IMG/VR virus record: IMGVR_UViG_3300013426_000025
Coordinates: 41,702-105,701 of that record
Length of the DNA stretch: 64,000 bases
Source of the DNA: a virus
Lineage: Duplodnaviria; Caudoviricetes
Direction: 5' to 3' (one strand)
Position numbers and translations under genes: made by a program. The notes beneath the pieces were generated by a model. It did no database searches and was not told where the DNA came from. It worked only from the letters and a program-made list of their open reading frames with translations. Shown here piece by piece: positions 40,245 to 47,864 of the stretch. How positions within the stretch are numbered: position 1 is the stretch's first letter; each line of letters begins with the position of its first letter.

Positions 40245-40248
40245 TTAG

Positions 40249-40322
40249 TGACTCCTAAAGGACTCGAACCTTTGACCCACAGCTTAGAAGGCTGTTGCTC
40301 TATCCAACTGAGCTAAGGAGCC
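40249..40322 (-). tRNA. tRNA-Arg(TCT)
   Basis: GGCTCCTTAGCTCAGTTGGATAGAGCA-ACAGC-CTTCTAA-GCTGT...GGTTCGAGTCC. Confidence 0.9.
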
Positions 40323-43026: not shown

Positions 43027-43348
43027 ATAATCCTTGTTTTAAAAGTAATGCAAATCCTCTACCTAATGTTTCTACTAATGGTTCGTTACCATTCTCTTCA
43101 ATAAACTGAAATGTACATAAAATAGCATGTACAAATTCATGTAGTACTATAGTTTGAATTTCAAAATCTGGCATATCTTCACCCTTCTCATTCACTAAAG
43201 AAACAATAATATCTTTAGTACTACCATTATGCCAACCATCACAAAATTCATTAGGGTCATTATCTATCTTATCTCTTGTAAAGTGTACCTTATATACACT
43301 ACCAAAGACTTCAATTTCAAAATCTTTCCATTCTCTTTTCTTCTCCAT
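43007..43348 (-). CDS. Zincin-like metalloprotease
   Basis: IVLHEFVHAIL (HExxH) with a downstream NEPLVE Glu. Confidence 0.7.
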   Translation of the reverse strand: MEKKREWKDFEIEVFGSVYKVHFTRDKIDNDPNEFCDGWHNGSTKDIIVSLVNEKGEDMPDFEIQTIVLHEFVHAILCTFQFIEENGNEPLVETLGRGFALLLKQGLYDKIQD

Positions 43349-44330: not shown

Positions 44331-44655
44331 CACACCACCCCTTCCATATTTTGATGGGTCTATTCCCCCCATTTGTACTATTATGAAATGTGATGCTGGT
44401 GACCATTGTGTTATCTGTGCATTTCAAGATAGTTGTCCATTGTATGATGAGTATATAGACTACCGTCTTGAAATGTACAATGAAAGTGTGTCAGATGCTT
44501 ATTAGTGTCTGACATACTTTAATCAATAAATCTCCACACCACTTCTCCTATATTTTGATGTGGTTATATTGTGTAGTATAAATAATGTAGCACTTACATT
44601 GTGTGTTACATTATCTAATCAATAAATCTCCACACCACTTTGGTTATATTTTGAT
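44331..44655 (+). repeat. Three direct repeats CACACCAC-N7-ATATTTTGAT
   Basis: Copies at about 44331-44355, 44521-44559 and 44617-44655; the last two share AATCAATAAATCTCCACACCACTT. Confidence 0.8.
44383..44505 (+). CDS. 40-aa Cys-rich microprotein
   Basis: MKCDAGDHCVICAFQDSCPLYDEYIDYRLEMYNESVSDAY*; lies after repeat 1 and ends in a hairpin; below the ORF-track cutoff. Confidence 0.45.
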   Translation: MKCDAGDHCVICAFQDSCPLYDEYIDYRLEMYNESVSDAY

Positions 44656-45056: not shown

Positions 45057-45072
45057 TCTCTCCAAGAATCAA

Positions 45073-45115
45073 ACTATCTATCCATACAATTTGTGTGGGT
45101 AGATAGTACTTTTAT
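45073..45115 (+). terminator. Intrinsic terminator
   Basis: actatctatccatac-aattt-gtgtgggtagatagt followed by actttt. Confidence 0.6.
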
Positions 45116-45736
45116 TCAGTAAACCATTGTATTTATCCTTGTGGTGCAGGCTAACCATTACAATGATTTACTGATTTTAACAATAAGTGTTCATAGGGCA
45201 AGCACTTTCAAAACAACCTATGCTGGATTCCGCTAGTGTGCTAGGACCTTTAACAGTGGGGAACCTGTGGTTAAACTGTTACTTAAACCAAGTCTCATAA
45301 AGTTAGTGGAGAGACTCTTTTGCTAGTTATGCTGTATAAACTAGTGAGGTCATTAGACCAAATGTCATATAGCAGTGACATCATGCAGTGAAGAGACTAG
45401 GCTGCATTTTAACACTCCTTGCAACGAGTCTTGTGGAGTATAAATCAGGAAAGACACGTATCTATTATTAATTTCTTTTAATAGTTTTCTTTGTAGATAG
45501 ACCAAACTGAGTCATTCTCAGCATGAATATTTAAAGTAAAACTATTACTTATATAGAATAAGTTAAAACACGATAGGGTCATTGTAAGTTCGACTCTTAC
45601 AACCTCTTAGAGATATATAATAGTTCTAGACACCATTATATATTGCTCAGATGAGTAAAGTGGATGACGGTTCGTCACTTATTCTATTCTTTACTTATAA
45701 GGGATTGGTTTCCCTTATAGGTTCTAAGTAAATAAT

Positions 45737-45997
45737 ATGATGTTTAACTTACAAGGTGATACTTTGGAAATAATACTTCCACAAGGTCACACTATGTCAG
45801 AATTGAACACCATGGCTAAAGCAGAGTTATCTGCATTGATTAAAGAAGGTCAATTCTTCGGAAAAGACATCAAAATCAATGGTAAATGTACTACTGCAAT
45901 GGCTATTCTTTTAGGGCATGAACTTGCACATGTATGTAAGAGTGTAAGTATCTTTGACCCTAAAGAGAATACCTATGTCATGTGTGTACAACATTGA
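45737..45997 (+). CDS. csx3: Csx3/Crn3 ring nuclease-like protein (candidate anti-CRISPR)
   Basis: GKDIKINGK..LLGHELAHVCKSVSIFDPK..YVMCVQH matches the Csx3 pattern (G-x-v-isG...aHxxxH...vavyDP[RK]...vvvxsH) as I recall it. Confidence 0.6.
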   Translation: MMFNLQGDTLEIILPQGHTMSELNTMAKAELSALIKEGQFFGKDIKINGKCTTAMAILLGHELAHVCKSVSIFDPKENTYVMCVQH

Positions 45998-47211: not shown

Positions 47212-47283
47212 GCTCCTATAGTTCAATGGACAGAACAACATCCTTCTAAGATGAAAATCTTGGTTCGATTCCAAGTAGGGGTA
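47212..47283 (+). tRNA. tRNA-Arg(TCT), second copy
   Basis: GCTCCTATAGTTCAATGGACAGAACA-ACATC-CTTCTAA-GATGA..GGTTCGATTCC..TAGGGGTA. Confidence 0.8.
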
Positions 47284-47472
47284 CAATGTATTTTTCATGT
47301 TTTTTGTTGTTTTATTTGTTAATTATTTACTTGTAATCTAATCTATACCTACAATCTTAACTCAAAAGCACAAGGTTGCTAAATAGTCTCTGTTTATATA
47401 TTAGTTTTTTGATTAGCGTTCCTATTATATATTCAAACTATTTAGCATTATCCTTAATAGATTAGATGAACA

Positions 47473-47778: not shown

Positions 47779-47864
47779 ACCTCTGTGTTGGAATCAGAAG
47801 ACAAGCAAGTCTTAAAAACTTGTGGTCAGAATTGACCGTGTGGGTGCAAGTCCCATCAGAGGTA
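47779..47864 (+). tRNA. tRNA-Leu(TAA), class II, non-canonical D/T loops
   Basis: ACCTCTG/CAGAGGT acceptor stem, CAAGT-CTTAAAA-ACTTG anticodon arm, long variable arm, T loop TGCAAGT. Confidence 0.7.

Follow-up and report, generated by a model that had tools for sequence, protein, structure and literature searches.

The window analyzed here covers the right-hand 64 kb of a virus record of 105,701 bp (IMG/VR record IMGVR_UViG_3300013426_000025), and the gene in question is a plus-strand open reading frame (ORF) whose 86-residue product is related to the Csx3/Crn3 proteins of type III CRISPR systems. A major head protein, a large terminase (TerL) and a portal protein were recognized in the phage by PHROG matches. 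The head protein was 56-57% identical to its counterparts in cr112_1 and cr106_1 (uncultured phages), IAS virus and the PhiCrAssBcn phages. Therefore, judged by its sequence, the phage is a divergent crAss-like phage.

The leftward (minus-strand) structural genes end at position 43348, and the first plus-strand ORF begins at 44383. In the rightward block the Csx3-like gene comes third, behind ORFs of 40 and 104 amino acids. A first-pass annotation, made by a model from the sequence and its ORF list, had reported this ORF at 45737-45997, with no cas genes or array nearby, in a crAss-like phage. All three statements agreed with our results: the ORF is present in the ORF list, the head protein comparison gave the same phage assignment, no Cas10 and no Pfam Cas_csx3 match was found anywhere in the 105.7-kb record, and no CRISPR-like array of tandem repeats was found in the 64-kb window. 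Thus the gene itself is not part of a type III CRISPR-Cas locus, nor does it adjoin one (no Cas10, array or cas neighbours). The same annotation placed the gene about 1.5 kb from the strand switch. The gene is indeed close to the switch, at a slightly different distance: its start is about 1.35 kb past that of the rightward block, and 2.4 kb separate it from the last leftward gene.

The motif spacing given in that annotation was reproduced exactly, namely G42-K-D-I-K-I-N-G49, x11, H61-E-L-A-H65, x8, D74-P75-K76, x9, and H86 as the last residue. The gene and the codons of its key residues are listed below, with their equivalents in the Csx3 of Archaeoglobus fulgidus (AfCsx3; AF_1864, PF09620), which binds cyclic tetra-adenylate (cA4).

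45737..45997 (stop codon included), plus strand: gene of a minimal Csx3/Crn3 homolog, an 86-amino acid ORF with an ATG start
45878..45886, plus strand: codons of N48-G49-K50, matching the cA4-binding loop S44-G45-R46 of AfCsx3
45917..45931, plus strand: codons of H61-E-L-A-H65, the histidine pair of helix 2, equivalent to AfCsx3 H57 and H60; the pair is proposed to bind Mn2+ at the dimer axis
45956..45964, plus strand: codons of D74-P75-K76, equivalent to AfCsx3 D69-P70-R71, the catalytic aspartate and a phosphate-binding basic residue
45992..45994, plus strand: codon of H86, the last residue, equivalent to AfCsx3 H80, through which the opposing dimer makes contact with the 2'-OH of the cA4 ribose

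Among 5.8 billion proteins, a word-indexed search returned 37 relatives of 83-105 amino acids with 51-100% identity to the window protein, none of which had a Pfam domain or a name. We aligned 34 of these 37 sequences and built a profile from them (alignment A1). Positions G42, G49, T52, T53, G60, H61, H65, S69-S71, F73, D74, P75 and K76 are invariant in A1, and H86 is retained in at least 90% of it. With 37 homologs and these invariant positions, the conservation identifies the ORF as a real gene. In most relatives the protein starts with MF, and the second ATG of the window gene, at 45740, may be its true start.

Homology to Csx3/Crn3 and predicted fold

Scans of Pfam, NCBIfam and PHROGs with the single sequence assigned no family to the window protein. 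In 50,697 reference phage records, a set that may not include the near relatives of this genome, tblastn found no match at E≤0.01. Direct matches were obtained with the PADLOC hidden Markov models (HMMs) of Csx3, namely PDLC01045 'Csx3-AAA' (E 4.5e-8) and PDLC01040 'Csx3 (CARF)' (E 3.5e-6).

An exhaustive HMMER search of 1.84 billion representative proteins with the A1 profile found 143 proteins at E≤1e-3, of which 92 were sampled for Pfam assignment, alignment and tree construction. PF09620 (Cas_csx3) was matched by 54 of the 92, with the best E value of 3e-17. For example, P0071 (A1 E value 3e-13), P0074 (8e-13), P0084 (1e-10) and P0096 (1e-8) all scored above the Pfam gathering cut-off for Cas_csx3, and P0071 carries two Csx3 domains. 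When A1 was compared by hhalign with 58 canonical long Csx3 sequences (52 of them PF09620-positive), the probability was 99.8%, with an E value of 2.8e-28 over 87 columns. Sequence searches of the PDB with the single protein or with the A1 HMM gave chance matches only (alcohol dehydrogenase, kelch); the AfCsx3 chains were reached after the profile had been widened, at an E value of ~6e-7.

The AlphaFold2 model built on A1 had a mean per-residue confidence (pLDDT) of 92.6 and a predicted template modeling score (pTM) of 0.77. It consists of two strands, a helix, a strand, a second helix and two further strands. In a Foldseek search of the PDB the top 13 rows were all A. fulgidus Csx3/Crn3 (6YUD, 3WZG, 3WZH, 3WZI, 6VJG), with modest E values of 7e-3 to 3e-2, probabilities of 0.98-1.0 and TM scores of 0.48-0.59; SAVED and CARF sensors came next. 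VIA-align, which is independent of Foldseek, was run against 48,161 representative chains and ranked 3wzh_A first, with a Z score of 8.8 and a root-mean-square deviation of 1.9 Å over 76 residues, superposing model residues 1-86 on residues 1-80 of the AfCsx3 chain. The runner-up was the CARF domain of Cat1 (Z 7.5), and all other chains had Z scores of 5.8 or below. No match at E≤0.001 was found by Foldseek among the predicted viral structures of BFVD. Going by the model, the window protein has the Csx3 fold, a distant CARF/STAS-like alpha/beta domain.

Because the profile, PADLOC and hhalign matches agree with the fold searches, the homology of the window protein to Csx3/Crn3 is established by independent routes. 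The first-pass annotation had proposed this likeness from the motif, and had named a blank profile or structure comparison with the Csx3 fold as the result that would speak against it. The comparison returned a match: AfCsx3 was the top fold match, and the PADLOC E value of 4.5e-8 and the hhalign probability of 99.8% point to true homology. Its further remark that AcrIII-1 has a different fold was also correct, with no Pfam match of the window protein to DUF1874 and a fold match to Csx3 and not to DUF1874.

The protein was also predicted to form a homodimer. The interface score ipSAE was 0.89 compared to 0.00 for the best control, at least 97% of the contacts were shared between runs, and the pLDDT of the partner chain was 94. 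In comparison proteins, 20 of 30 solved as pairs and one of 23 solved as single chains reached the mark used to call a dimer. The predicted interface is formed by helix 53-64, including contacts of helix 56-61 and an H61-H61 contact, as in AfCsx3. Such a score may reflect the predictor's memory of the solved AfCsx3 dimers.

The residues required by AfCsx3 have been described in detail. The H60A and D69A variants are inactive, and mixing them restores activity; the R71A and H80A variants have strongly reduced activity (PMC7371418). H57, H60 and H80 are absolutely conserved, with H57 and H60 lying on the dimer axis as likely Mn2+ ligands (PMC7371418). On the 'D69 face', residues S44, G45, R46, I49 and R71 hold the cA4 molecule, which is also touched by H80 from the next dimer (PMC7371418).

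We observed in the profile alignments and in the hhalign comparison that most Pfam-positive Csx3 follow the pattern I-N-G-(R/P)...H-x3-H-x8-D-P-K...H, and that the phage protein reads I-N-G49-K50...H61-x3-H65-x8-D74-P75-K76...H86. Thus H61, H65, D74, K76 and H86 align to H57, H60, D69, R71 and H80, and the catalytic and cA4-binding positions known from AfCsx3 are retained. The residue equivalent to AfCsx3 R71 is a lysine, as in most Csx3. The histidine pair is spaced HxxxH in the window protein, which is the commoner form among Csx3, compared to HxxH in AfCsx3. HMMER sets H65 opposite AfCsx3 H61, with a gap adjacent. Because the 8-residue distance to the aspartate is conserved, the alignment indicates that H65 is the equivalent of H60 and that AfCsx3 has one residue fewer between its two histidines.

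The string G-H-E-L-A-H also reads as the zincin motif HExxH, which makes it a trap for motif-based annotation. One locus first taken for a relative (L020, 4994-5818) was a false lead of this kind, a Peptidase_M48 gene sharing a GHELAH-type HExxH string. The string bears on the possibility that the protein acts outside defence signalling, either as an RNA 3'-end (deadenylating) exonuclease or as a small HExxH metallopeptidase. The former would recall AfCsx3 itself, first reported as a Mn-dependent RNA deadenylase by the account cited in PMC7371418; in the same paper RNA binding by AfCsx3 was much weaker than cA4 binding. For the latter we found, besides H61-E-L-A-H65 and the spurious Peptidase_M48 locus, a weak match to eCIS_core with an E value of 0.14. 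We rejected the metallopeptidase since the fold is that of Csx3 and not of a zincin, and since relatives have T, I, L, R, K or A in place of E62; the HxxxH of canonical Csx3 lacks the glutamate as well. Taken together, a role outside defence signalling seems very improbable.

The short clade and the genomic context of its members

The window protein stops at the equivalent of AfCsx3 H80 (H86), whereas canonical Csx3 proteins (about 100-115 amino acids) run on for 15-30 residues. Eighteen of the 92 sampled sequences end at this histidine, and all of them fall inside one group of 28 rows. In the tree (a quick maximum-likelihood search on 92 sequences with few columns and a midpoint root), a branch with SH-aLRT support of 98 parts this short clade from the other 64 rows, 63 of which are long. 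All five catalytic positions were kept in 13 of the 28 short-clade rows, compared to 46 of the 64 canonical rows. All 92 sequences have G49. At position 50, most close relatives have an arginine, and 21 of the 28 short-clade representatives have R or K; position 48, which corresponds to S44 of AfCsx3, varies.

Members of the family were found in several kinds of phages. A parallel in gene order is seen in a 95.8-kb crAss-like contig (L021), whose TerL and portal proteins are 50% and 54% identical to those of the window phage. There the gene is the second ORF past the same divergent switch, upstream of a helicase. The TerL homolog of this contig (L021:829-5232; ERZ16268229 scaffold_128) is 1,467 amino acids long and carries Hint, intein-splicing and LAGLIDADG domains, that is, it bears an intein; the window TerL has 742 amino acids.

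In two further loci (L004, L006; GCA_965313895.1, GCA_002633315.1), a 67%-identical homolog lies ~2.4 kb from the gene of a 3,900-amino acid LPD38 protein with a weak RadC match, across a strand switch. In phage contigs of 48-66 kb from gut metagenomes (L007-L009), the gene stands behind DnaB, DUF1064 and HTH_17 genes, and is followed by DNA methylases in L007 and L008. Two temperate phages (L013, L014), each encoding an integrase and an HTH_3 repressor, have the gene within their early rightward operon. L015 has the same operon, with no integrase or repressor within the locus. L016 contains a tape-measure gene, three further loci are IMG/VR viral contigs, and homologs (one of them 92% identical) were present in 39 further metagenome loci. 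The contigs of the more distant relatives P0074 and P0063 are short and gave little context. The gene thus occupies the same position in a second crAss-like phage, and the family is not confined to crAss-like phages, with members in temperate phages and in tailed phages of other kinds.

Cellular contexts were taken from a scan of one genome per species, covering 185,579 species. On a deltaproteobacterial contig (L018), an 88-amino acid copy that is 52% identical to the window protein (E 2e-27) and ends at the histidine lies directly upstream of genes for a RAMP protein, Cas10/Cmr2, Cmr3, two further RAMP proteins and Cas6. In a metagenome-assembled genome of Cytophagia (Bacteroidota; L019), a copy truncated at the end of the contig matches residues 46-86 with 73% identity, and behind it come Cas6, Card1 (CARF plus endonuclease), a reverse transcriptase-primase fusion, Cas1 and Cas2. 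AfCsx3 likewise adjoins type III-B cmr genes. A tblastn search with the cas proteins of L018 and L019 against 61 loci found cas genes in those two only, a weak negative as most loci are short and cas proteins diverge.

The fusion gene in L019 (L019:2999-5893; CAZSMC010000114.1) encodes 964 amino acids with a reverse transcriptase, TPR repeats, an AEP primase of the TOTE type and a Mu Gam-like domain. It lies between Card1 and Cas1-Cas2, immediately 5' of the latter pair, and makes an unusual reverse transcriptase-primase adaptation module in a type III locus.

Because relatives occur across phages and in type III loci, we regard the short form, on this comparative evidence, as a naturally occurring subfamily of Csx3 with ties to type III CRISPR signaling and not as a broken phage gene. 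The type III placement of the close cellular relatives fits an origin as a host off-switch. We infer a transfer from host to phage, a direction that is not readable from the present tree.

Proposed action on cA4 and the regulatory setting

By analogy with AfCsx3, we think it probable that the window protein is a dimeric, Mn2+-dependent cA4 ring nuclease which the phage uses against type III CRISPR. The phage, which has no CRISPR genes, would make the protein from the start of the rightward block. It would form a homodimer, as AfCsx3 does, with the G49/K50 loop and D74-P75-K76 on one face binding cA4, and with H61, H65 and the C-terminal H86 on the opposite face. Two dimers would stack head to tail around one cA4 molecule, and a Mn2+-dependent cut would convert it to linear di-adenylates. 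The cA4 that host Cas10 produces on detection of phage RNA would thus be removed, and cA4-activated effectors (Card1, Can2, Csx1 and similar proteins) would stay off. From this analogy we infer that the protein would bind and cleave cA4, with filament-type catalysis proceeding even though the usual C-terminal segment is missing, and would so protect the phage.

Several observations weigh against such a role, and the first of them come from the short clade itself. In fifteen of its 28 representatives the set of five catalytic positions is incomplete (P0048, P0049, P0050, P0064-P0068, P0072, P0075, P0076, P0081, P0107, P0158 and P0161 in alignment A2). For example, D-P-K is changed to V-P-Q or V-P-M, or both histidines are gone, with G49 retained. 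In terms of conservation, catalysis is not required across the whole short clade, and the positions are strictly kept in the subgroup of the window protein. The members without catalytic residues may be non-catalytic binders (sponges) or may have altered specificity. Furthermore, head-to-tail assembly could need the C-terminal segment that is missing here.

The same observations would suit a window protein that is itself a sponge, a dimer sequestering cA4, perhaps with ligand-driven stacking, and with little or no turnover, like Csx15 or the phage sponge proteins. The representatives that lost catalytic residues kept G49 and mostly D-P, and the absence of the C-terminal segment could impair a catalytic assembly. 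AfCsx3 binds cA4 tightly, with an apparent dissociation constant below 100 nM (PMC7371418), and Csx15 is a precedent for a sponge (PMC13148439). On the other hand, H61, H65, D74 and K76 are invariant, and H86 is nearly so, in the window protein and its 33 aligned close relatives, and conservation of both faces is not expected from binding alone. A sponge may also be ineffective against the large amounts of cyclic oligoadenylate (cOA) made by type III systems, as argued by the authors of PMC13148439. We consider a sponge unlikely for the window protein.

Other points against the cA4 nuclease concern its family assignment and its setting. PF09620 did not match the window protein even at E≤10 (the gathering threshold is 21 bits), which leaves the protein outside Pfam's family as drawn, and the same model touched one of the 34 close relatives, at an E value of 0.075. 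Early expression is suggested by gene position only, and the role proposed for the whole short clade draws on sequence and structure prediction. Finally, the best-studied Bacteroides type III-B system signals by S-adenosyl methionine-AMP (SAM-AMP) and not by cA4 (PMC10600005).

The last point leads to the possibility that the protein is a ring nuclease or phosphodiesterase for another signal, either cA3, cA6, the oligonucleotides of cyclic oligonucleotide-based antiphage signaling systems (CBASS), or the SAM-AMP of Bacteroides-type III-B. The host is presumably a member of Bacteroidota, and type III-B systems using SAM-AMP are common in B. fragilis (PMC10600005). Moreover, the clade is divergent, position 48 is variable, and CBASS SAVED and CARF sensors appeared as weaker fold matches. 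However, the G-R/K loop and D-P-K, which make the cA4 contacts, are conserved, and a close cellular relative adjoins Card1 (in L019). Card1 is a cA4-activated effector, as is Can2. Effectors of the Can2 type are encoded by Bacteroidales (title of PDB 8bao), and AfCsx3 is specific for cA4, with no cA6 degradation in the authors' pilot experiments (PMC7371418). Action on another signal is quite unlikely in our assessment, and cA4 would be a far likelier substrate than CBASS signals or SAM-AMP. We therefore retain the cA4 ring nuclease as the favored role.

The region between the leftward genes and the Csx3-like gene contains two kinds of features that may bear on its expression.

44332-44355, 44536-44559 and 44632-44655, plus strand: three copies of ACACCAC-N7-ATATTTTGAT (3 matches compared to 0.01 expected by chance)
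45685..45737, plus strand: imperfect extended hairpin in the 5' leader, formed by inverted repeats I2 and I3, with the 3' arm reaching the start codon

The three repeats are confined to the divergent strand switch, upstream of the rightward block, and the last two copies lie within 76-nt repeats. They probably serve this block as early promoters or regulatory sites; that they drive the Csx3-like gene itself is a candidate link only. A scan for sigma-70 promoters stayed at background (27 found compared to 25 expected), with a consensus ill-suited to Bacteroidota.

Between the 104-amino acid ORF and the Csx3-like gene lies a stretch of 680 bp (45057-45736) with no ORF longer than 46 amino acids. 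A terminator-like hairpin with a 16-bp stem (45073-45107) is located 3' of the 104-amino acid ORF, and the leader at 45600-45750 folds with a z score of -3.05. The leader hairpin may control translation or transcription of the Csx3-like gene. A search of the ORF-free leader and the switch region against Rfam gave nothing beyond chance.

The ORFs adjoining the Csx3-like gene matched no Pfam family, except for a sub-threshold HNH_3 match in a 310-amino acid ORF. The first rightward ORF (44383-44505, plus strand; 40 amino acids) is Cys-rich, with the pattern C-x6-C-x2-C-x7-C, and begins just behind the first promoter-like repeat; its product may be a small zinc-binding early protein. Two tRNA-Arg(TCT) genes flank the strand switch on opposite strands (40248-40322, minus; 47212-47284, plus). 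The window also contains tRNA-Thr and tRNA-Asn genes on the minus strand and, on the plus strand, a tRNA-Leu(TAA) gene that overlaps the start of an annotated 110-amino acid ORF at 47820.

Relation to known ring nucleases

The window protein is, by sequence and predicted structure, a viral ring-nuclease candidate of the Csx3 family in shortened form. It resembles AfCsx3 in its fold, the predicted helix-2 dimer, the catalytic residues and the equivalents of the G45-R46 loop. It differs in sequence (~18% identity), in stopping at the H80 equivalent, with the final 20-30 residues absent, and in being encoded by a phage without cas genes. Csx3-AAA/Csx3' fusions (PDLC01045; the long Csx3 of cyanobacteria) have an N-terminal Csx3 domain that gave the best single-sequence HMM match, over residues 3-79. 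These proteins carry a C-terminal ATPase/kinase-like domain or a tandem Csx3 domain, whereas the window protein is a bare, shortened single domain.

The proposed role, that of a small viral dimeric enzyme destroying cA4, is shared with AcrIII-1/Crn2 (DUF1874), a family likewise common to viruses and CRISPR loci; AcrIII-1 was the first ring-nuclease anti-CRISPR to be known from viruses. AcrIII-1, which is experimentally proven, has an unrelated fold, is metal-independent and takes one cA4 per dimer, compared to one between two dimers in the mechanism proposed here. We rejected membership of the window protein in AcrIII-1/Crn2, as it has no Pfam match to DUF1874 and has the Csx3 fold; the two may work alike. 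Viral SAVED (AcrIII-2), Crn4b, Csx16 and Csx20 are cOA-degrading anti-CRISPRs of phages or plasmids, proposed or shown, and their families differ from Csx3 (PMC12751052, PMC12830947, PMC12409355). AcrIII-2 and Csx15 stack head to tail on cA4 (PMC13148439).

Crn3 was described from type III systems of euryarchaea and cyanobacteria (PMC7371418). A 2025 survey of 28,114 phage genomes with HMMs of Crn1-3, Csx15, Csx16 and Csx20 recorded AcrIII-1 in 36 of the genomes, Csx20 in four, Csx16 in two and Crn3 in none (PMC12409355). Crn4b has been found in 11 phage genomes (PMC12830947), and AcrIII-2 is the viral SAVED ring nuclease (PMC12751052). No report of a viral Csx3/Crn3 (in combination with crAss, phage or AcrIII) was found in the full-text literature searched, which mostly lacks subscription papers and is not proof of absence.

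A broader proposal would cover the whole clade, and we hold its chances to be evenly balanced. The short Csx3 proteins would be a Pfam-invisible clade, transferred among unrelated phages (crAss-like, temperate and other tailed ones) and a few type III loci, of new anti-type III ring nucleases, the smallest known (~85 residues), and their histidine-less sisters would be cA4 sponges.

Viral ring nucleases are a proven means against type III CRISPR, and, to our knowledge, few families of them occur in phages (AcrIII-1, AcrIII-2, Crn4b, Csx16 and Csx20). A shortened Csx3 that is missed by the standard models would add a family to this list and would show that surveys undercount viral ring nucleases. 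With its 86 residues, the window protein would also make a minimal test case of how much of Csx3 the two-dimer active site needs, and possibly a compact tool for turning off cA4 signaling. The crAss-like phages are among the most abundant human gut viruses. If the proposed role is true, they would gain a direct counter to cOA signaling in Bacteroidota, and the finding would tie them to the cOA-based immunity of their hosts.

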